64,000 nucleotides of DNA from Chloroflexota bacterium (GCA_022821645.1 JAJEDE010000022.1:74794-138793); one strand, 5' to 3'; shown: positions 30,591-39,773, counted from the stretch's first letter. Numbers and translations: made by a program. The notes: generated by a model from the letters alone, not told the origin.

Positions 30591-31529
30591 ATGCACGCGC
30601 TGATTACCGGCGGCGCCGGCAGCATCGGATCGCGGCTGGCCGCCGCGCTGATCGAGCGGGGCGACCGCGTGACGGTCGTGGACGTGCGGGCGGAGCCGGT
30701 GGCACCGTCGGCGACGTTCGATCGCGCGGACGTACGCGTGGGGGAAACGCAGGCGGCGGGATTCATCGATGGGATCGTTGCGGAAACGCGGCCGGACGCG
30801 ATCTTTCACTTGGCGTCGCTGCTTTCGGGAAGTTCAGAGACCGACTCGGAGCTGGCCTGGCGGGTGAACCTGGACGGCATCCGCAACGTGCTGGAGGCGG
30901 CGCGAATCCATGGCGTGGAACGGGTGCTGTTTCCCAGTTCGGTGGCCACATTTGGCATGGGCGTCGGCGATACGGTGACCGACGACAGCCCGCAGTGGCC
31001 GGCGGGGCTCTATGGCGTGACGAAGGTGCTCGGCGAGCGGCTGGGGGTGTATTACTTTCAGCGCTTCGGCGTGGACTTTCGATGTGTCCGGCTCTCGGCC
31101 ATGGTGGCGCCCACGGCGCCGGCGGCGGGCGCGGCCAGCGCGTTCGTCTGCGAGCTCTACATCGGCGCAGTACGCCAGGGCGGCTATACATTCAAGGTCT
31201 ATCCCCACAGCCGCATCCCGTTGGTCTGGGTGGAGGACGTGGTTGGATCGATGCTGCAGTTGCACGACGCGCCGGCCAGCCAACTCAGCCGCCGCGTCTA
31301 CCAGGTGATGGGCTCGAACCCGACGGTCCAGGAAATGGCCGACGCGGTGCAGCGGCGAATGCCGGACGTGAAGCTCCGTTTCGACCCGGACCCCGTACCC
31401 GCCGGCGTGGTGGACAGCTGGGCCTCCAGCATGGACGACACCAGCGCCCGCACCGACTGGGGCTGGGCGCCCAGGTTTGACCTGGACGGCATGACGGACG
31501 CGGTGCTGGCGGAGCTACGGGCCGGATAG
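30591..31529 (+). CDS. NAD-dependent epimerase/dehydratase family protein (threonine dehydrogenase-like SDR)
   Basis: MHALITGGAGSIGS is followed by the catalytic YGVTK. I chose the start at ATG 30591. Confidence 0.8.
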   Translation: MHALITGGAGSIGSRLAAALIERGDRVTVVDVRAEPVAPSATFDRADVRVGETQAAGFIDGIVAETRPDAIFHLASLLSGSSETDSELAWRVNLDGIRNVLEAARIHGVERVLFPSSVATFGMGVGDTVTDDSPQWPAGLYGVTKVLGERLGVYYFQRFGVDFRCVRLSAMVAPTAPAAGAASAFVCELYIGAVRQGGYTFKVYPHSRIPLVWVEDVVGSMLQLHDAPASQLSRRVYQVMGSNPTVQEMADAVQRRMPDVKLRFDPDPVPAGVVDSWASSMDDTSARTDWGWAPRFDLDGMTDAVLAELRAG

Positions 31530-31581
31530 CCAAGACGCTAGCGCCCGCGACTCCTCGAAGGAAACCTCGTTCGGGCCCCCG

Positions 31582-32436
31582 TCAGCCGATGGGCTGAAAC
31601 TTGTAGAGGGCGTCGTCGCGTTGGACTTCGCCCATGTAGATGGCGCCTTCGGGGTCGACCCAGATGCCGTGGGGGGCGCTGAAGGTGGCGCCGCCGTCGC
31701 CGGGGTCTTCCCAGGAGGTGATGGTCTGGCCGCTGAGGTCCAGTAGCGAGACTCGGCCGCCGACTTCGGCGAGGTAGATGACGCCCGCATCCTCGTCGAT
31801 GTAGAAGTCGGAGGGCTGGCGGAAGCCGGTCCACTCATCCATGTAGACGCCGTCGGGATCGAAGATCTGGATGCGGTGGTTTTCGCGGTCGGCCACCAGG
31901 ATGCGGTCGTCGCTGAGGGCCCAAATGCCGTGCGGGAGGTCGAATTGGCCGGGACCTGTGCCCGGCTCGCCCCAGCTGTTGAGCAACTGACCGCTGGGCG
32001 CGAAGCGGTGGCAGCGAGTGTCGCCATAGCCATCCGAGACGTAGATGGAGCCGTCGGCGCCGAGGTGGGTGTTGGTCGGGTGGTTGAAATGGCCGCCATC
32101 GGCGCTGGTGAAGTTGGGGTAGCCGATGCGGCGCACGACGCGGCCTTCGGTGGTGGTGACCCAGACGACCTGGGCGTAACGGTCGGTCAGCCAGAGGTGC
32201 TCGTTTTCGTCCAGGTAGACGCCGTGGGCGTGGTTGAGAAGGTCGTCGCCCCAGGTATCGACGATCCGGCCTTCGGCATCGAACACGATCATGGGGTGGG
32301 TGCCGCGGCAGAAGCAGTAGACGCGGCCGCGGCTGTCCACGGCCACGCTGCCGATCCAGCCCAGAAAAACGTCGGCCGGCAACTGCGGCCAGCCTTGCAC
32401 GCGCTCGTAGCGATGCGATCCACTTCCTACCGGCAT
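31582..32436 (-). CDS. NHL-repeat six-bladed beta-propeller protein (peptidylamidoglycolate lyase-like)
   Basis: Repeated blade motifs are present: VAVDSRGRVYCF, GVYLDENEHLWLTD, GADGSIYVSDGYG, ILVADRENHRIQIFDPDG and VIYLAEV. Confidence 0.7.
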   Translation of the reverse strand: MPVGSGSHRYERVQGWPQLPADVFLGWIGSVAVDSRGRVYCFCRGTHPMIVFDAEGRIVDTWGDDLLNHAHGVYLDENEHLWLTDRYAQVVWVTTTEGRVVRRIGYPNFTSADGGHFNHPTNTHLGADGSIYVSDGYGDTRCHRFAPSGQLLNSWGEPGTGPGQFDLPHGIWALSDDRILVADRENHRIQIFDPDGVYMDEWTGFRQPSDFYIDEDAGVIYLAEVGGRVSLLDLSGQTITSWEDPGDGGATFSAPHGIWVDPEGAIYMGEVQRDDALYKFQPIG

Positions 32437-32552
32437 CGGCCTGCCCTTCCGCGTGAACCTGTTACGCGCCCATCGTAGTCGGCGGCGGCGCGCTGCGCTT
32501 GTGGCGGGTTTTTCACGGACGGGCGGACCAGCGTCCGCTTAGACTCCCCGTC

Positions 32553-33527
32553 ATGGCGACCTTGGCAACCAGCGGCGCACCTGTGCGGGCCAGTGGCCTG
32601 TGGAAGCGGTTTGGGGCGCTGGACGTGGTGCGGGACGTCTCGCTGGAGATCGCGCCGGGCGAGGTGGTGGGCTTTGTGGGGCCCAACGGCGCGGGCAAGA
32701 GCACCACCATCCGCATGATGCTGGACATCTTTGCGCCGGACCGCGGCACGGTGGAGGTGTTTGGCGCGCCGATCGACGACGCGGCGCGAAGGCGGATCGG
32801 ATACCTGCCGGAGGAGCGCGGGCTGTATCCGGGTCTGCGGATTCCGCCGATCCTGAAGTACATGGCGGAGTTGAAGGGGGTGCCGTCCCACGAAGCACCC
32901 GGGCTGGCGGACGCGGCGCTGGAGCGGCTGGGCCTGACGGAACACCGCGCCAAGAAGGTGGGCGAACTGAGCCGCGGGTTGCGGCAGTTGCTGCAGTTTA
33001 CGGCGACGATTCAGCACAAGCCGGACTTCCTGGTGCTGGACGAACCGTTCTCGGGCCTGGACCCGGTGAACGTGCGGCTGATGAAGAACACGGTGGCCGA
33101 CCTGCGCGCCGACGGAGTGGCCGTGCTGTTCTCGACCCACCAGATGACGGACGTGGAGGAACTCTGCGACCGGGTGCTGATGATCAACCACGGCGAGATC
33201 GTGCTGAACGGCGGCGTGCGGGAGATTCGACGCCAGCACGCAAGCGATCGGCTGCTGCTGGAGTGCGCGTCGGACATGCCGTACGCCTTGTGTCTGCCGG
33301 GCGTGGCGGCGGCGGAGATGCACGGCGATGGCTGGCGCATCAGCCTGACCGAGGCGGGGTCGGCCGAGGGCGTATTGCGAGCGCTGCTGGACGCGGGCAT
33401 CCAGATCGAGCGGTTCGAACGCGAGGCGCCGACCCTGGAAGAGATCTTCCTGCGGATCGTCGGCGGCTCGGACGGCACCGCCGACGGGGCCGGGATCTCT
33501 GATGCGGAGGCGCAGGTCGATGGGTAG
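32553..33527 (+). CDS. ABC transporter ATP-binding protein (NatA-like, ABC-2 type)
   Basis: Walker A is GPNGAGKST, the signature is LSRGLRQ and Walker B is FLVLDEPFSGLD. I chose the start at ATG 32553. There is an 8-nt overlap with the downstream permease start. Confidence 0.9.
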   Translation: MATLATSGAPVRASGLWKRFGALDVVRDVSLEIAPGEVVGFVGPNGAGKSTTIRMMLDIFAPDRGTVEVFGAPIDDAARRRIGYLPEERGLYPGLRIPPILKYMAELKGVPSHEAPGLADAALERLGLTEHRAKKVGELSRGLRQLLQFTATIQHKPDFLVLDEPFSGLDPVNVRLMKNTVADLRADGVAVLFSTHQMTDVEELCDRVLMINHGEIVLNGGVREIRRQHASDRLLLECASDMPYALCLPGVAAAEMHGDGWRISLTEAGSAEGVLRALLDAGIQIERFEREAPTLEEIFLRIVGGSDGTADGAGISDAEAQVDG

Positions 33528-34163
33528 CGTCCGGATCGTCACCCGGCACGAGTTTCGGACGGCCGTCACCCGGCTGTCGTTCATCATCACGACAGCGGCC
33601 GTGCCGGTCCTGGTGGCGCTGGCGGTGGCCGGCTTCGCGATCTTCACGCTGGTGACGCGAGGCGACGGGGATACGGAAAGCGCGCCGGGCATTGAGCGAA
33701 GCGATGAACTGCCGCGCCTGGGATACGTGGACATGACTGCTGGACCGGCGCTGTTTGACGGTCACCGCGAGCAGGCGGGGGCGCTGTTCGTGCCGGTGTC
33801 GGACCGGCCGACCGGAGTTGCGGCGCTGAGGGACGAGGAGATCGAGGCGCTGTTTGAGTTCCCGCCGGACTTTGTCGAGACGGGCCGCGTGGTACGGGTG
33901 AGGTTCGCTGATGACGGCGGCGGCGTCTTCGACCCTGATGACCCTTCGTATAGCGGGGCGTTACGCGGGTTCGTGCTGTCGAATCTGTTTGCGGGCGAGG
34001 TGTCGGGCACGTTGGCCGAGCGGCTGCAGGTTCCTTACCGGCTGGCAACGGAGGAAGTGCAGGCGGATGGCGGCGAGGCGGACGCGGGCGAAACTGAGTT
34101 CGACATCGGCCGGGCGGTGTTCTTCGCGGTGGTCGGCATTTCGCTGCTGTTTTCGCTTTTTTT
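33520..34163 (+). pseudogene. NatB-like ABC-2 permease, 5' fragment (interrupted by IS insertion)
   Basis: MGSVRIVTRHEFRTAVTRLSFIITTAAVPVLV...FFAVVGISLLFSLF runs directly into the left inverted repeat. The track ORF 33502..34290 reads on into IS sequence and then terminates. Confidence 0.85.
34156..34163. repeat. target-site duplication, left copy (CTTTTTTT)
   Basis: The 8 bp immediately outside IRL are identical to 36486..36493 immediately outside IRR. Confidence 0.85.
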
Positions 34164-34190
34164 GGGAATTATCGGCTTGACGATCCTAGA
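34164..34190. repeat. left terminal inverted repeat (IRL)
   Basis: IRL is GGGAATTATCGGCTTGACGATCCTAGA. The reverse complement of 36459..36485 is GGGAATTATCGGCAAGGCGATCCTAGA. Confidence 0.85.
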
Positions 34191-34237
34191 TATGCTGCGA
34201 TACACTCTACGTATCGCAGTTGAGAAGGGGATCGAAC

Positions 34238-35155
34238 GTGAGCCTGATTCAGTTCACGCAGAAGTACGCGACGCCCGAGGCGTGCCTTGAGCACCTGAAA
34301 GCCGTCCGCTGGAAGAACGGCGCCTACTGCCCGCACTGTGGGAGCAAGCGCAAGATTTACCACTACTCCGACGGCCGCCGTCACCGCTGCGCGGATTGCA
34401 AGCGCGTCTTTCGACTGATTACGGGCACCATCTTCTCGAACAGCCCGATCAAGCTCCTGCCCAAGTGGTTCGCGGCCATCCACCTGGTCACCGAACTCCG
34501 CAAGGGCATATCCGCGCTGCAACTCTCGCGCGAGCTTGAAGTGGCCTACGAGACCGCGTGGCACATGCACGCGCGGATTCAGAACGCGGCCAGCCTGGTA
34601 GACACCGGAATGCTCACCGGCCAGGTTGAGATCGATGAGACCTATATCGGCGGCAAAGAGTCCAACAAGCACGCGGACAAGCGAACCGAGGGCACGCAAG
34701 GCGCGGGATCGGCCAAGACCAAAGCCGTCGCGTTCGGCATGGTTGAGCGCGGCGGCAAGGTGCGAGCGTTCCACGTCCAGTCCGCAGCGAGCCGCCACGT
34801 CACCCCGCACGTTATCCGCAACATCGCGCTCGGCTCCGACATCAGCGCGGACGAACACCGCGCCTACAGCACGCTCGACGGCTTCTACGCGATTGCCCGC
34901 ATCAACCACGGGCGCGGCGAGTACCGGCGCGGCGCAACGTCCACGAACGCGATTGAGAGTTTCTGGGCCCTGGTCAAGCGGTGCTTCGTCGGTACGCACC
35001 ACTGGTGGAGCCGCAAGCACACCCAGCGATACCTGGACGGCTGCGCGTTCCGCCTGAATGTGCGAGAGTTCGCTCCCCTGAGCCGCGTAGACACGTTGCT
35101 AGCCGCTGGCATGGCACCGGACGCGCAGCTCCCCTACAAGGCGCTGGTGGCGTAA
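34238..35155 (+). CDS. IS1595-family (ISXO2-like) DDE transposase
   Basis: The N-terminal zinc ribbon is CPHCGS...HRCADCKRVF. The core has VEIDETYIGGK, ISADEHRAY and NAIESFWALVKR, typical of the IS1595 transposase domain. GTG 34238 (VSLIQF...) is preferred over the track start 34220. The stop TAA overlaps the dam ATG. Confidence 0.8.
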   Translation: MSLIQFTQKYATPEACLEHLKAVRWKNGAYCPHCGSKRKIYHYSDGRRHRCADCKRVFRLITGTIFSNSPIKLLPKWFAAIHLVTELRKGISALQLSRELEVAYETAWHMHARIQNAASLVDTGMLTGQVEIDETYIGGKESNKHADKRTEGTQGAGSAKTKAVAFGMVERGGKVRAFHVQSAASRHVTPHVIRNIALGSDISADEHRAYSTLDGFYAIARINHGRGEYRRGATSTNAIESFWALVKRCFVGTHHWWSRKHTQRYLDGCAFRLNVREFAPLSRVDTLLAAGMAPDAQLPYKALVA

Positions 35156-36009
35156 TGGCTGACCTGAACAGCATCCTAAGCGTGACACCCCGCCCGTATC
35201 TCCCGCCCGCCCGCGCTCACCCGTTCGTCAAGTGGGCCGGCGGCAAGCGAGCCTTGATCCCCGAGATTGCCGCGCGGTTGCCGGACGCGCTGGGCACCTA
35301 CTGGGAGCCGTTCACCGGCGGCGGCGCGGTGTTCTTTGCCCTGGACGGGCTGACCACGGCGGCGCGGCTCTCCGACATCAACTCGGAGTTGATCATCACC
35401 TACGCGGTCGTCCGCAACCATCCCGAACGGCTGATTGACGCGCTGCGCGTCCACGAGGGCCAGCACAAGCGATCCGGCTACTACGTAAGCGTCCGCAAGC
35501 AGCGCGACGCGCAGGATGCCGTCGAAGTCGCCGCGCGGTTCATCTATCTCAACAAGACCTGTTTCAACGGCCTGTATCGCGTCAACAAGTCCGGCCAGTT
35601 CAACGTGCCCAAGGGCCGGTACAAGAACCCGAAGATCTGCGACGCTGACAACATCCAGAACGCGAGCGAGGTGCTCCGCAAGGCGCGGCTGCGCTACGGC
35701 GGCTTCGATGAGATTGACCCGAACGGCGGCGACTTCGTGTACTGCGATCCGCCGTATGACGGCGCAAGCGTGGCCTACGCGCCGCATGGCTTCGACGATG
35801 ATGATCAGCAGGCCCTACGCGACGCGGCGGCGCGCTGGGCGCGCCAGGGCGTCAACGTGATGCTCTCCAACGCGGATACGCCCCTGATCCGTTCGCTCTA
35901 CCGGCGCGCGCCGTTCACGCTTCACGAGGTGCAAGCGCCGCGCTCGATAAGCTGCGACGGCAACGGGCGCGGCAAGGTGGGCGAGCTGATCATCACCACG
36001 TATGGCTAG
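35155..36009 (+). CDS. Dam-type (D12 class) N6-adenine DNA methyltransferase
   Basis: FVKWAGGKR, the SAM-binding motif EPFTGGGAVFF and the catalytic motif VYCDPPY are present. I placed the start at ATG 35155 (MADLNS), overlapping the transposase TAA (TAATG). The longer track ORF 34981 is an out-of-context extension. Confidence 0.85.
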   Translation: MADLNSILSVTPRPYLPPARAHPFVKWAGGKRALIPEIAARLPDALGTYWEPFTGGGAVFFALDGLTTAARLSDINSELIITYAVVRNHPERLIDALRVHEGQHKRSGYYVSVRKQRDAQDAVEVAARFIYLNKTCFNGLYRVNKSGQFNVPKGRYKNPKICDADNIQNASEVLRKARLRYGGFDEIDPNGGDFVYCDPPYDGASVAYAPHGFDDDDQQALRDAAARWARQGVNVMLSNADTPLIRSLYRRAPFTLHEVQAPRSISCDGNGRGKVGELIITTYG

Positions 36010-36463
36010 TGCCCGCACCGGCAACCGGACGGGCCGCAGCCTAGAGCGGTCGGTTGCCGAGATCATCGAGATTGCCGGGTATCGGCTTGTCGAACGGTCC
36101 ACGCTGTTCTGGGCCATGCGGGAAGTCGCGCAGCCCATCTATGCCGCGCAAGTCGAGACCGGCCACGACATCTACGGCAAGCGGCGGCGCGTGGACTTCG
36201 TGCTCTATCACCCGCAACGCTGGCCGGGGTGTCTGGTCATTCAGTGCAAGTGGCAAGCGTCGCGCGGGAGCGTGGATGAGAAGTACCCGTACGAGGTGCT
36301 GAACATCCAAATGGGCGAGTACCCGACGATCATCGTCCTGGACGGGAGCGGCTACTCACCGGGCTCTGCGACGTGGCTACGCGGCCAGCAGGGGAAGAAC
36401 CAGCTACGCCACGTTCACGACCTGGGGCAGTTCCAGCGGTTCGCTAGCCGTGGCTCTCTCTAG
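36002..36463 (+). CDS. small PD-(D/E)XK-like (Mrr/Hjc-like) putative restriction endonuclease, 153 aa
   Basis: GRSLERSVAEIIEIAGYRLVER...KRRRVDFVLYHP...CLVIQCKWQ fits the G..E(R)..(helix)...D...(E/Q)xK nuclease-core layout. There is an 8-nt overlap with the dam stop (ATGGCTAG). Its own TAG lies inside IRR. Confidence 0.55.
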   Translation: MASARTGNRTGRSLERSVAEIIEIAGYRLVERSTLFWAMREVAQPIYAAQVETGHDIYGKRRRVDFVLYHPQRWPGCLVIQCKWQASRGSVDEKYPYEVLNIQMGEYPTIIVLDGSGYSPGSATWLRGQQGKNQLRHVHDLGQFQRFASRGSL

Positions 36464-36485
36464 GATCGCCTTGCCGATAATTCCC
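36459..36485. repeat. right terminal inverted repeat (IRR)
   Basis: TCTAGGATCGCCTTGCCGATAATTCCC is the reverse complement of IRL apart from 3 mismatches. Confidence 0.85.
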
Positions 36486-36493
36486 CTTTTTTT
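36486..36493. repeat. target-site duplication, right copy (CTTTTTTT)
   Basis: Identical to 34156..34163. Confidence 0.85.
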
Positions 36494-37136
36494 CAGCTCG
36501 GGCTACCTGCTGAACGCGCTGGTAGAAGAGAAGGAAAACCGGGTGATGGAGGTGTTGCTGTCGTCGGTCAAGCCCGACGCGCTACTGCTGGGCAAGTTCT
36601 TCGGCTTGGGCGCCGCGGGGCTTATACAGATGGCGGCGTGGTTGGCATCCATGGGCGTGGGGGTGCTGGTGATCGGGCTGATCGTGGACATTCCCGCCGA
36701 CCTGCTGGTGGTTCCTTCGGTAGGCGACCTTGCCGTGGCGGCGGCGTATTTCCTGCTGGGCTACTCGCTGTTTGCGTCGCTGATGGCCGCAGTGGGAGCG
36801 GTTTCGACCTCGCTGCGGGAGGCAAACCAGATATCGGCCATCGTCATCATTCCGGCCTTCATCCCAGTCTGGCTGAACTTCATCCTGTTCTCGGAGCCCG
36901 AAGGCACGGTGGCGCGAGTGCTGACGTACATCCCGTTCACGGCGCCGGTTACCGGACTGATTCGCCTCGCAATCGACGCGATGGGGCCATTGGAGACGTT
37001 GGGCGCGCTACTGGTGCTTGCGCTGTGCGCCGCCGGTGCGCTGCTGCTGGCCATGCGGCTGTTCCGGGCTTACCTGCTGATGTATGGCAAGCGGCCGACG
37101 CTGAAGGACATGGCGCGGAGCGTGGTGTCGGGATAG
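36486..37136 (+). pseudogene. NatB-like ABC-2 permease, 3' fragment
   Basis: (LF)FSSGYLLNALVEEKENRVMEVLLSSVKPDALLLGKFFG... is the conserved ABC-2 core followed by five hydrophobic helices. It is in frame with the 5' fragment once 34164..36493 is removed. The track ORF 36450..37136 starts at a GTG inside the IS. Confidence 0.85.
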
Positions 37137-37199: not shown

Positions 37200-37487
37200 C
37201 TATGGCGCGGCCGTTCCCTGGTCGATCGCCTCGAGGCGTTCCAGGATCCACATGCGCGCCAGGGTCGTGGGGCCGATGCCCTTCCTCTGGGCTGTCGCCC
37301 GCAGGGTCTCAAGGGTCTCGGGCGTAAAGCGCACGGTGATGCCCTGGGAGAGGTTCCTGGCAAAGCGGACGTTGACCGGCTCGAACTCGTCCTCGAAGTC
37401 GGTCGTGTCATGGGTGTCCCAGAACCTGGCCTCTTCTTCGCGGCTGTTGAACGTCGGAATCCGAGGCTTCTTTCTTGTCTCACTCAC
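37200..37487 (-). CDS. brnA: BrnA-type antitoxin (CopG/RHH-like C-terminus)
   Basis: FNSREEEARFWDTHDTTDFEDEFEPV...ITVRFTPETLETLRATAQRKGIGPTTLARMWILERL matches the BrnA pattern. There is a 4-nt overlap with brnT. Confidence 0.75.
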   Translation of the reverse strand: MSETRKKPRIPTFNSREEEARFWDTHDTTDFEDEFEPVNVRFARNLSQGITVRFTPETLETLRATAQRKGIGPTTLARMWILERLEAIDQGTAAP

Positions 37488-37768
37488 TCCTTCACTCCCC
37501 TCTGCGAATCCCGGTACGTCCGCCGCTCACGAAGGCTGGCCGGCCGCGCCGTTACCGGGTAGTAGACCTCAACCTGCACCGGAGCCAAGATCACCGTCAG
37601 TATCCGCCCTGTCGCCGTCTGGCCGATCACACGAAGGCGGCCCCGGCAGGTACGGCTCGCATGGGTAAGTCCCTGGCACGTCTCTTCGACTTCGTTGGGT
37701 GTGACCTTGTGTCGCGCGATGTGGGCTACGTTCCACGTGTCCCAGACGAGTTCCCGTACAAACACCAT
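37484..37768 (-). CDS. brnT: BrnT-type toxin (DUF497 ribonuclease family)
   Basis: LVWDTWNVAHIARHKVTPNEVEE...GRLRVIGQTATGRILTVIL...YPVTARPASLRERRTY matches the DUF497 pattern (WD..N..H...H.V...E.EE...R....G....GR.L.V......TAR.A...ER..Y). The toxin-first order is as described for BrnTA. Confidence 0.75.
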   Translation of the reverse strand: MVFVRELVWDTWNVAHIARHKVTPNEVEETCQGLTHASRTCRGRLRVIGQTATGRILTVILAPVQVEVYYPVTARPASLRERRTYRDSQRGVKE

Positions 37769-37934: not shown

Positions 37935-39773
37935 ATGACGATTACGACGTTTCTGGGTGATCGCAGCGTGGGGATGCGGACGGGGTTTACGACGCGGCCG
38001 GTGGTGATGGGGACGCGGGGGGTGGTGACCTCGGGGCATTACCTGGCGACGGCGGCCGGGTTCCGGATGATGGAGCAGGGCGGCAACGCCATCGACGCCG
38101 CGGCGGCGATGTGCTTCTGCCTGAACCTGCTGGAGCCGCAGAGCAACGGGCTGGCGGGCGAGGTGCCGACGCTGATCTACTCGGCCAGGGAACGCAAAGC
38201 CTACGAGTTGAGCGGCATGGGCTGGTCGGCCCAGGCATTCACGATCGACTGGTGTCGAGAGCATGGAATCGACCTGGTGCCCGGCGACGGGTATCTGCCG
38301 GCCTGCGTGCCCGCCGTGGTGGGCACCTGGGCGGCGGCGCTGGCGCGCTTTGGGACCATGAGTTTCAGCGAGGTCGTGCAGCCGGCCATCGAGTTGGCCG
38401 AGAACGGCTACCCCGTCTACGACAGCCTGCACAACAGCCTGGCCAGCAACGTGGACAAGTTCACCGAGGTGTATCCGAGCACCGGCGAGGTGTATTTGCC
38501 GGGCGGGAAGGCGCCTGCGGTAGGTGAGCTTCATCGAAACCCCGACTGGGCCGAGACGCTGCGTGTCCTGTGCCGAGCGGAAAAAGCGGCCGCCGGACGG
38601 GGACGCATCGCCGGCATCGAGGCCGCGCGCGATGCGTTCTACAAGGGCGAGATCGTCGAGCGAATCCTGGACTTCATCAGCACGCCGCTCGAAGACGCGA
38701 GCAGTTCCGCTCACGCGGGGCTGTTGAGCTACGAGGACTTCGCGGAGTGGGAAGCAGAGTTCAATGAGCCGCCGAGCGTCAACTACCACGGCCTGGACGT
38801 GCATAAATGCTCCAGTTGGACGCAGGGGCCGGTGTTCCTGCAGCAGTTGACGCTGCTTGAGGGGTTCGACCTGGCGGCGATGGGCCACAACTCGGCGGAC
38901 TACCTGCACACGCTGATCGAGTGCGCCAAGCTGGCCTTTGCCGACCGTGAGGCGCACTACGGCGACCCGAAGTTTGACGACGTGCCGTTCGACCGGCTGC
39001 TCTCGACGACCTACGCGGAAGAGCGCCGGACGTTAGTCGGTGAGCAAGCGTCGTTGGAGATGCGGCCGGGGGACGTGGGCGGCGGCTTTCCGGCCTATGC
39101 CACCGTAGACGTGGCCGAGGACAACCGGCGGGCGTTGCAGGTGGCGGCCCGTGAGGTGCGGGACCTGGGGCTGGGGCACGCGCACGTGGGCGACACGACG
39201 CACCTGGACGCGGTAGATCACGAGGGCAACATGGTGGCAGCCACGCCCAGCGGCGGCTGGCTGGGTACCTCGCCGGTGATCCGCGGGCTGGGCTTTCCAC
39301 TGGGCACGCGCGGGCAGATGTTCTACCTGAATCCGGCGCGGCCCAACGCGCTGGCGCCGCGCAAGCGGCCGCGGGCCACGCTGACGCCGTCGCTGGTGAC
39401 GCGGAACGGCGAGCCGCTCATGGTGTTCGGCACGCCGGGCGGGGACGGGCAGGACCAGTGGACGCTGCAGTTCTTCCTGAACCACGTGCACTTCGGCATG
39501 AACCTGCAGGAAGCGCTGGACGCGCCGACGGTGCACTCGGTGCATTTCCCGTCGTCGTTCTATCCGCGCGAGGCGTATCCGGGGCGGCTGGTAGCCGAAG
39601 GACGGATCGACCGAGCAGTTCTGGCGGAACTCGAACAGCGCGGTCACGAAGTGGAAATCACAACCGATTGGTCGAACGGCAAGCCAATGGGCATCCGGTA
39701 CGGCGGGCCGGACGGCGTAATCTCGGGCGCCGTTTCACCGAAGGGAATCATTGGGCACGCGCTGGGGTGGTGA
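37935..39773 (+). CDS. ggt: gamma-glutamyltransferase family protein
   Basis: VVTSGHYLATAAG...GGNAIDAAAA is present. The autoprocessing/nucleophile site is VGDTTHLDAVDHEGNMVAATPSGG, followed by FGTPGGDGQ. Confidence 0.85.
   Translation: MTITTFLGDRSVGMRTGFTTRPVVMGTRGVVTSGHYLATAAGFRMMEQGGNAIDAAAAMCFCLNLLEPQSNGLAGEVPTLIYSARERKAYELSGMGWSAQAFTIDWCREHGIDLVPGDGYLPACVPAVVGTWAAALARFGTMSFSEVVQPAIELAENGYPVYDSLHNSLASNVDKFTEVYPSTGEVYLPGGKAPAVGELHRNPDWAETLRVLCRAEKAAAGRGRIAGIEAARDAFYKGEIVERILDFISTPLEDASSSAHAGLLSYEDFAEWEAEFNEPPSVNYHGLDVHKCSSWTQGPVFLQQLTLLEGFDLAAMGHNSADYLHTLIECAKLAFADREAHYGDPKFDDVPFDRLLSTTYAEERRTLVGEQASLEMRPGDVGGGFPAYATVDVAEDNRRALQVAAREVRDLGLGHAHVGDTTHLDAVDHEGNMVAATPSGGWLGTSPVIRGLGFPLGTRGQMFYLNPARPNALAPRKRPRATLTPSLVTRNGEPLMVFGTPGGDGQDQWTLQFFLNHVHFGMNLQEALDAPTVHSVHFPSSFYPREAYPGRLVAEGRIDRAVLAELEQRGHEVEITTDWSNGKPMGIRYGGPDGVISGAVSPKGIIGHALGW

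Follow-up and report, generated by a model that had tools for sequence, protein, structure and literature searches.

A 2.3-kb IS1595-family mobile element with a methylase and a small nuclease as passengers in a Chloroflexota bacterium, and its relatives in three phyla

The element and its insertion site

The window analyzed here is a 64,000-nt stretch of the genome of a Chloroflexota bacterium (GCA_022821645.1 JAJEDE010000022.1:74794-138793). Within this window, a two-gene transporter operon, which comprised an ABC transporter ATPase and an ABC-2 permease, was split by a 2.3-kb element (34164-36485) containing three genes enclosed by 27-bp terminal inverted repeats. The three genes encoded an IS1595-family transposase, a Dam/DpnM-like adenine methylase and a small PD-(D/E)XK nuclease (Table 1). 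The element is real, was recently inserted and is probably active. We consider it likely that it is an IS1595-family tIS (a category described below) carrying a type II restriction-modification (RM) pair and moving as a single 2.3-kb unit.

Table 1. Features of the element and of the interrupted transporter operon, in window coordinates.
Feature	Position	Strand	Remarks
ABC transporter ATPase	32499..33527	+	upstream of permease; PF00005 and DrrA1-3_C
Permease 5' half (ABC-2, interrupted)	33520..34163	+	
Left 8-bp target-site duplication CTTTTTTT	34156..34163	.	identical to 36486-36493
Left inverted repeat (IRL) GGGAATTATCGGCTTGACGATCCTAGA	34164..34190	+	holds -35 box and GATC at 34182-34185; fits consensus GGGAATTATATACTTGACGATCC
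Predicted sigma-70-type promoter	34177..34206	+	-35 TTGACG (34177-34182, inside IRL), 18-nt spacer, -10 TACACT
IS1595-family transposase, 305 aa, GTG start	34238..35155	+	zinc ribbon and DDE domain
Dam/DpnM-like N6-adenine DNA methyltransferase, 284 aa	35155..36009	+	D12 class; FxGxG, DPPY
PD-(D/E)XK nuclease, putative restriction endonuclease, 153 aa	36002..36463	+	stop codon TAG inside IRR
Right inverted repeat (IRR)	36459..36485	-	GATC at 36464-36467
Right 8-bp target-site duplication CTTTTTTT	36486..36493	.	identical to left copy
Permease 3' half (ABC-2, interrupted)	36494..37136	+	

The IRL and the reverse complement of the IRR were equal at 24/27 positions, and the element ends read GGGAATTAT. 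The 8-mer CTTTTTTT on both sides of the element occurred nowhere else on either strand of the 64-kb window, and the probability of such a match at a fixed place was ~1e-6 by chance, based on the base composition. Repeats and flanking 8-mer had both been reported in a preliminary description of this DNA, and they were reproduced by computation. When the two permease halves were joined, an open reading frame (ORF) of 1287 nt was obtained that encoded 428 aa, as that description had proposed, and the joined permease aligned in a single stretch with the Pfam family ABC2_membrane_3 (profile positions 2-346 of 347).

The permease is not naturally split, since it was uninterrupted in relatives. An orthologue of 428 aa (P0241) showed 93% identity to the restored protein, and dozens more uninterrupted orthologues, some of which were named Chloroflexota in their sources, were found at 75-85%. 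The contig encoding P0241 (L094) was ~95% identical in DNA to the window, with the same gene order, for >12 kb on both sides of the site. It kept the order of ATPase and permease and lacked the 2.3-kb block, and hence all three genes. At the site, L094 read TTTTCG-CTGTTCTT-CAGCTC. The 8-mer occurred once there, with two synonymous changes relative to the window. The insertion happened after the strain had split from this ~95%-identical relative. The ratio of nonsynonymous to synonymous substitution rates (dN/dS) of the split permease against L094 was 0.16, compared with 0.09-0.36 for the neighboring genes, at a dS of about 0.2. Because the split gene was unrelaxed and both of its halves were still open, the insertion was recent relative to the dS of ~0.2, and the recent insertion proposed from the window alone was thus borne out.

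The transposase ORF had been given 306 aa in the preliminary description; alignment with relatives supported instead the GTG at 34238 as the start, which yields 305 aa. It matched the zinc ribbon family Zn_ribbon_IS1595 (PF12760, E 7.6e-13; CxxC...CxxC formed by C31, C34, C51, and C54), the catalytic domain DDE_Tnp_IS1595 (PF12762, E 7.8e-38; profile positions 1-153 of 153) and NF033547 (E 2e-48; 165 bits against a cut-off of 75), so that its assignment to the IS1595 family lay above curated cut-offs. The four cysteines as well as D133, D205, E240, and K247 were invariant in 12 family members. The IS1595 family is defined by a C-terminal DDE_Tnp_IS1595 catalytic domain, and an N-terminal zinc finger is present in all groups except IS1016 (PMC8101967). 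The element possessed the DDE domain, the zinc ribbon, the 8-bp duplication and the terminal inverted repeats. A classical insertion sequence (IS) has one transposase gene and nothing else; here, two passenger genes lay inside the repeats, which placed the element in the tIS category and not among plain IS.

A tIS has an IS-like structure, with one transposase, inverted repeats and a duplication, plus passenger genes that are not involved in transposition (10.1101/2021.05.26.445724; PMC11891212). The element fitted this structure in each respect, and its passengers would play no part in transposition because relatives transpose with other cargo. As for the subgroup, ISNwi1 of ISfinder has the end motif GGnnatTAT, a DDE-K signature and passenger genes; the ends GGGAATTAT and E240 with a K at +7 would be consistent with this subgroup.

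Just one promoter-like site was found in 34000-36700, and this was the predicted promoter with its -35 box in the IRL. The same layout (-35 in the IRL, a spacer of mostly 17 nt and a TATAAT-like, often perfect TATAAT, -10 box) was detected in 31/36 distinct IRL regions of the family and in 0/36 IRR controls. The transposase stop overlapped the methylase ATG at TAATG, and the methylase stop overlapped the nuclease start at ATGGCTAG; these overlaps and the domains of the three genes, supported by Pfam and TIGR matches, agreed with the preliminary description. The nuclease stop codon lay within the IRR in the short form of the element, including the window copy. Together, the IRL promoter and the TAATG and ATGGCTAG overlaps suggested that one promoter serves a single operon with translational coupling, from which the methylase would be made before the nuclease.

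Distribution and mobility of the lineage

The nuclease profile, run against one genome per species, yielded 80 loci. The full transposase-methylase-nuclease unit was present in the same order at 39 of these, and 11 had a truncated transposase; 19 contained methylase and nuclease without a transposase, 3 stopped at a contig edge and 8 held the nuclease alone. The hosts of the full unit belonged to three phyla, comprising Chloroflexota, Acidobacteriota, and Pseudomonadota (Alpha- and Gammaproteobacteria), and many of the host metagenome-assembled genomes came from sponge-associated taxa. Element boundaries were set by a consensus-anchored repeat search; de novo repeat detection around the secondary, distant IS1595 copies in the loci was mostly unsuccessful.

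The end consensus GGGAATTATATACTTGACGATCC was conserved in 37 distinct repeat pairs, and 31 of the 42 loci with both repeats showed a perfect 8-bp duplication. Across the relatives, there were 35 perfect 8-bp duplications, 34 of them distinct, with 86% A+T even in GC-rich hosts. Same-genome copies at different sites were 99.5-100% identical, with five intact copies in a Nitrosomonadaceae chromosome; three further genomes, from Dehalococcoidia, Marinacidobacterales and Gammaproteobacteria, held two near-identical copies each. Copies from Paracoccaceae and Arenicellales shared 93-95% identity, which indicated transfer between classes. Both the additional copies and the empty site that the preliminary description had proposed to look for in related genomes were found. 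In the relatives, this block was bounded by inverted repeats and duplications rather than lacking them.

The pairwise distances of the three proteins correlated with one another (Mantel r = 0.83-0.90; 0/999 permutations as high). The dN/dS values of transposase, methylase and nuclease were 0.02-0.3, which indicated purifying selection on each of them, and the GC content of the element followed that of the host from 0.40 to 0.67. Co-divergence, purifying selection and the tracking of host GC content indicated that the cargo is an old and integral part of the element. The element moves as one unit that duplicates 8 bp of AT-rich target, and its three genes stay together and co-diverge.

Two copies in Marinacidobacterales (L017 and L018, at about 4.32 Mb and 0.86 Mb of contig CBDFHB010000002.1) were 100% identical and in opposite orientation. 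Their flanks were reciprocally swapped (TTCTGTTA/CTAATTAA vs. CTAATTAA/TTCTGTTA), which pointed to a chromosomal inversion of roughly 3.5 Mb via recombination between the copies. Element copies are thus recombination substrates. The Nitrosomonadaceae copies L031 and L034 had one flank in common, AACGCTTT.

The closest full relative (L001; 75% transposase identity, duplication TAGGATTA) was situated between two hydantoinase genes. Its neighbors at this locus (L001:916-10092) were a type IIG-like N6_Mtase/Eco57I gene encoding 999 aa and another IS1595 copy. At four loci (L006-L009), a truncated transposase was fused in frame to a hydantoinase_B fragment, and methylase and nuclease were intact, which suggested that the cargo was retained after loss of the transposase. 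Variants of 2.5-2.6 kb (L012, L076, L042, L043, L054, L049, L050, and L057; also L002:6459-6674) had a fourth small ORF (about 63-87 aa) that followed the nuclease gene and preceded the IRR; this ORF was absent from the window copy. These ORFs represented at least three unrelated types, two of which were cysteine-rich, and a Pfam search with them gave no significant match.

The full three-gene element was also found on viral-classified contigs of IMG/VR (L095-L097 and L100-L102), with the perfect duplication TAAACAAT in L097 and L100. These carriers may be prophages or misclassified contigs, and they could provide a route for transfer between hosts. In plasmid and phage collections, no annotated copy of the element was found; a plasmid of Alicyclobacillus encoded a single distant methylase-nuclease pair, and phages had none.

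The scan of viral contigs detected 22 more distant relatives (36-42% transposase identity), which had perfect 8-bp duplications and about the first 18 nt of the outer repeat in common with the lineage. With lengths of 1.6-4.4 kb, they must carry passengers too. Among IMG/VR contigs that shared this outer repeat and showed perfect 8-bp duplications, the cargo comprised a C5 methylase and an HNH endonuclease (L126), an N6_N4 methylase and a 226-aa protein (L129), a lone N6_N4 methylase (L162), KilA-N and P63C proteins (L128), P63C-type proteins (L150 and L172), and a DUF1828 protein (L175). The P63C assignments were confirmed by Pfam in L128 and L150 and based on a shared motif alone in L172. 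A 227-aa gene of L090 had just a sub-threshold HNH match in Pfam. Judging from these predicted cargoes, this IS1595 subgroup seems to act as a general shuttle that carries modules for DNA modification.

Two elements combined these features differently. L109 (4916-7584) belonged to a divergent IS1595 lineage with 41% transposase identity; it had repeats without GATC (GGTAACTATATAC...), the duplication CTTATTTT, and a cargo of Dam methylase, PDDEXK_11 nuclease and an 84-aa ORF. L089 (3320-6926) was a 3.6-kb element with GATC-type repeats GGGGATTATACGCTAGGTGATCC, the duplication AAAAATTT, and a transposase 49% identical to that of the window. It possessed neither methylase nor nuclease; its small cargo ORFs were coiled-coil or membrane-like and had no family match in Pfam.

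The methylase-nuclease pair and alternative explanations

The methylase matched PF02086 (E 2.7e-57), TIGR00571 (E 2.9e-78; 263 bits against a cut-off of 115), and the PADLOC model MTase_II (E 2e-84). Its best solved relative was DpnM (2dpm, E 8e-59), followed by E. coli Dam, and both of these are GATC enzymes. Seven residues aligned to the GATC contacts of Dam in the Dam-DNA structure (K9, N120, L122, R124, P134, R137, and Y138) were conserved in the methylase.

The nuclease was unannotated in every source. It matched PF20472 (PDDEXK_11, E 2.6e-31), and E15, D65, Q81, and K83 were invariant. At E <= 1e-10, this large family comprised 460 clusters (50% identity), almost all of them about 150 aa long. 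The DpnII-family catalytic core was weakly matched by 23/32 family members and Mrr_cat by 12/32; the nuclease matched the DpnII Pfam profile (278 positions) solely at 144-217. Its AlphaFold model was confident, with a pLDDT of 87, and the top Foldseek matches in the PDB were the type II restriction enzymes BstEII, MspJI, MunI, and BsoBI. All of these matches were weak, and they supported the fold class of the nuclease only.

As expected for a type II RM system, a methyltransferase with catalytic and S-adenosylmethionine-binding motifs was found next to an endonuclease with a nuclease motif. The order of methylase and then nuclease was conserved with and without the transposase, and the pair was held by the 19 transposase-free loci and by one plasmid of a cultured Alicyclobacillus. 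In one cluster, represented by P0363 (432 aa), D12 methyltransferase and PDDEXK_11 nuclease were fused in one protein, which may represent either a genuine fusion or a frameshift where the two genes overlap. From domains and gene organization, we regard the pair as a likely RM system and, provided that this holds, GATC specificity as similarly likely.

The following mechanism was proposed. One promoter with its -35 TTGACG in the IRL would transcribe transposase, methylase and nuclease as a coupled operon. The methylase would make G(m6A)TC, and the small nuclease would act as the cognate type II restriction enzyme and cut unmethylated GATC. The element would give its host a restriction barrier and gain post-segregational stabilization for itself, and the IS would give the RM pair mobility within and between genomes. 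That the element is a defence/addiction module, as the preliminary description suggested, is what we infer from domains and gene order.

A separate context was observed in Poribacteria (L067:6001-8141), where genes for an N6_N4 DNA methylase and a MutH/Sau3AI-family nuclease came after that for a PDDEXK_11 nuclease, and where neither a Dam-type methylase nor a transposase was present. By its predicted genes, this locus is a different RM-like context for the PDDEXK_11 nuclease. It speaks in favor of the RM reading, as does the RM or methylase cargo of other elements in the IS subgroup.

Several points weigh against the nuclease being a restriction enzyme and the pair an addiction module. The fold matches were weak, with 9e-3 as the best E and no TM-score above 0.53, and neither a sequence search of the PDB nor the PADLOC restriction-enzyme models gave a match to the nuclease; the transposase was likewise unrecognized by PADLOC. 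With 153 aa, the nuclease would rank among the smallest type II enzymes. GATC was not specifically avoided: its observed/expected ratio was 0.92 in the window and 0.87 in the pooled host flanks, like other palindromes, so there was no genomic footprint of restriction, and this comparison is uninformative. Where a genome holds several copies, the argument for addiction becomes weaker for each of them.

The missing annotation, the absence of PADLOC and PDB sequence matches, the weak fold matches and the lack of GATC avoidance in window and host flanks would also fit a cargo that does not restrict DNA. Such a cargo would consist of an orphan-like Dam methylase with an epigenetic or anti-restriction role and of a PD-(D/E)XK toxin or a MutH/Vsr-type repair or nicking enzyme, and orphan methylases are indeed carried by related tIS such as L162. 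This explanation is nevertheless distinctly unlikely, given the tight and ancient coupling of methylase and nuclease in a fixed order with overlapping genes, with or without a transposase and including the fusion protein, the resemblance of the nuclease core to DpnII and Mrr restriction enzymes rather than to the MutH or Vsr Pfam families, and the strong purifying selection on the nuclease. The restriction-enzyme-like fold, together with the constant presence of the nuclease beside the transposase in this lineage, could instead suggest an accessory of transposition like TnsA of Tn7, which would cut the second strand at the element ends and not foreign DNA. However, related IS1595 elements with other cargo and no such nuclease still showed perfect duplications, the nuclease was kept beside the methylase in the 19 transposase-free loci and on the plasmid, and the conserved GATC lay 19-22 nt inside the ends and not at the cleavage positions. 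The TnsA-like role was rejected as highly improbable, because relatives transpose without the nuclease and transposase-free pairs exist. Finally, the transposase might merely lie next to a methylase-nuclease pair, with repeats and duplication being coincidental. Nothing was found in favor of this; the empty site of L094 lacked all three genes, the repeats enclosed all three with the nuclease stop inside the IRR, and dozens of independent whole-unit insertions in relatives each had their own duplication. Adjacent but separate genes were ruled out on these grounds, the probability being close to nil.

The ends of the element suggested another role for the methylase. GATC was found at repeat positions 19-22 in 36/37 IRL and 35/37 IRR, and together with the terminal GGG it formed the most conserved block. 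In the IRL, it overlapped the -35 TTGACG of the conserved promoter layout, and the window copy and several relatives had a second GATC, located after the ribosome-binding site and before the start codon. Where this lineage has GATC in its repeats, the 22 distant relatives had TCCC, TCGC or the like, and all but L109 lacked a Dam gene. The passenger methylase might therefore mainly serve the element itself by marking the GATCs of the repeats, with binding and/or expression of the transposase gated by methylation. The transposase would then be switched on when the DNA is hemimethylated, as just after replication, or unmethylated, as after transfer, and the nuclease would just enforce retention. 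However, the association was seen in a single clade and so amounts to about one evolutionary event. Moreover, L109 has Dam and nuclease cargo yet no GATC in its repeats, L089 has GATC repeats yet no Dam cargo, and the GATC may simply belong to the transposase binding site. On balance, we consider such self-methylation control rather unlikely. An extended version would be a self-contained, methylation-gated transposon that fires on newly replicated or transferred DNA in any host with or without Dam, with a mini restriction enzyme that penalizes its loss and the subgroup as a dedicated vehicle spreading RM or epigenetic modules among co-resident phyla; from the sequence features at hand, this seems unlikely.

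Relation to known systems and neighboring genes

Host Dam regulates the transposition of IS10/Tn10 and IS50/Tn5. The element resembled IS10 and IS50 in having GATC within terminal transposase-binding repeats, where it overlaps the transposase promoter. In those systems, however, the methylase is that of the host, whereas here the element would supply its own, and here the GATC overlapped the -35 box and not the -10 box. The likeness is one of sequence, and L089 and L109 are counter-examples. The lineage offers a system in which to ask whether a transposon can carry its own Dam-style transposition switch.

The reading of the element as a tIS with an RM pair also relates it to published mobile elements. 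For tIS of the IS1595 family, three sources (PMC11891212, PMC8101967, and the TnCentral preprint 10.1101/2021.05.26.445724) cite Siguier, Gagnevin and Chandler 2009. Published passengers of IS1595 tIS include transcription regulators, methyltransferases and resistance genes, and no complete pair of methylase and nuclease was mentioned in these three sources (PMC11891212, PMC8101967, 10.1101/2021.05.26.445724). The element was like the IS1595 tIS in its zinc ribbon and DDE_Tnp_IS1595 transposase, inverted repeats, 8-bp duplication and passengers inside the repeats. Unlike in the published tIS, its cargo was structurally integrated, with a stop codon in the IRR and a promoter in the IRL, and co-diverged with the transposase over three phyla.

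RM units with imperfect terminal inverted repeats and an 8-bp duplication, shown by comparison with an empty site, were described by Furuta, Abe and Kobayashi 2010 (PMC2853133). Their unit in Neisseria gonorrhoeae had 26-bp inverted repeats, an 8-bp duplication and an ORF with a transposase motif; its type IIG gene was truncated, its transposase was "likely inactivated", and the authors could not tell what had moved it (PMC2853133). They cited the 2009 IS1595 paper among reports of IS-flanked RM or methylase genes (PMC2853133). Our element likewise had RM genes between imperfect inverted repeats, an 8-bp duplication and an empty site. In contrast to these single cases, its transposase was intact, its cargo was a two-gene type II pair, and recent multi-copy transposition was evident.

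With respect to the DpnII/MboI-type systems and Dam, the methylase was similar over its full length to DpnM and E. coli Dam, and the nuclease core was weakly DpnII-like. The nuclease differed from DpnII-type enzymes in that it was only 153 aa long, belonged to a separate Pfam family (PDDEXK_11) and matched no PADLOC restriction-enzyme model. It is a compact candidate for a type II restriction enzyme and would be among the smallest of these.

The preliminary description had called the combination unusual, which went too far, since tIS with passengers and 8-bp-duplicating RM units are known and the element is part of a large lineage. The literature searched, on IS1595 with RM or passenger genes and on PF20472, gave no description of this lineage, with ISfinder, REBASE and the 2009 IS1595 paper outside the search. 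Transposon-like RM units and IS1595 tIS are already published, and this lineage adds to them. Its interest lies at the level of the lineage, in the spread over three phyla, the integrated architecture and the conserved GATC ends. RM systems are known to be mobile and their route is rarely clear; the lineage provides a clean case, with an intact transposase, an empty-site allele, many independent insertions and genomes with near-identical multiple copies. It could also account for some of the enrichment in type II RM genes that is known from sponge microbiomes (PMC9531527).

Directly downstream of the interrupted permease, a pair of CopG-antitoxin and BrnT-like toxin genes was found on the minus strand (window 37200-37768). 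The pair is native to the locus, because the empty-site relative L094 has it too. L094 also differed from the window at two other places. An extra 2.7 kb in L094 (L094:1404-4075; window ~31524-31582) contained a 721-aa LRR/Tricorn-like gene that was absent from the window. The gamma-glutamyltranspeptidase gene was called as two ORFs (406 and 220 aa) in L094:8085-9924 and was one intact 612-aa ORF in the window (37935-39773).

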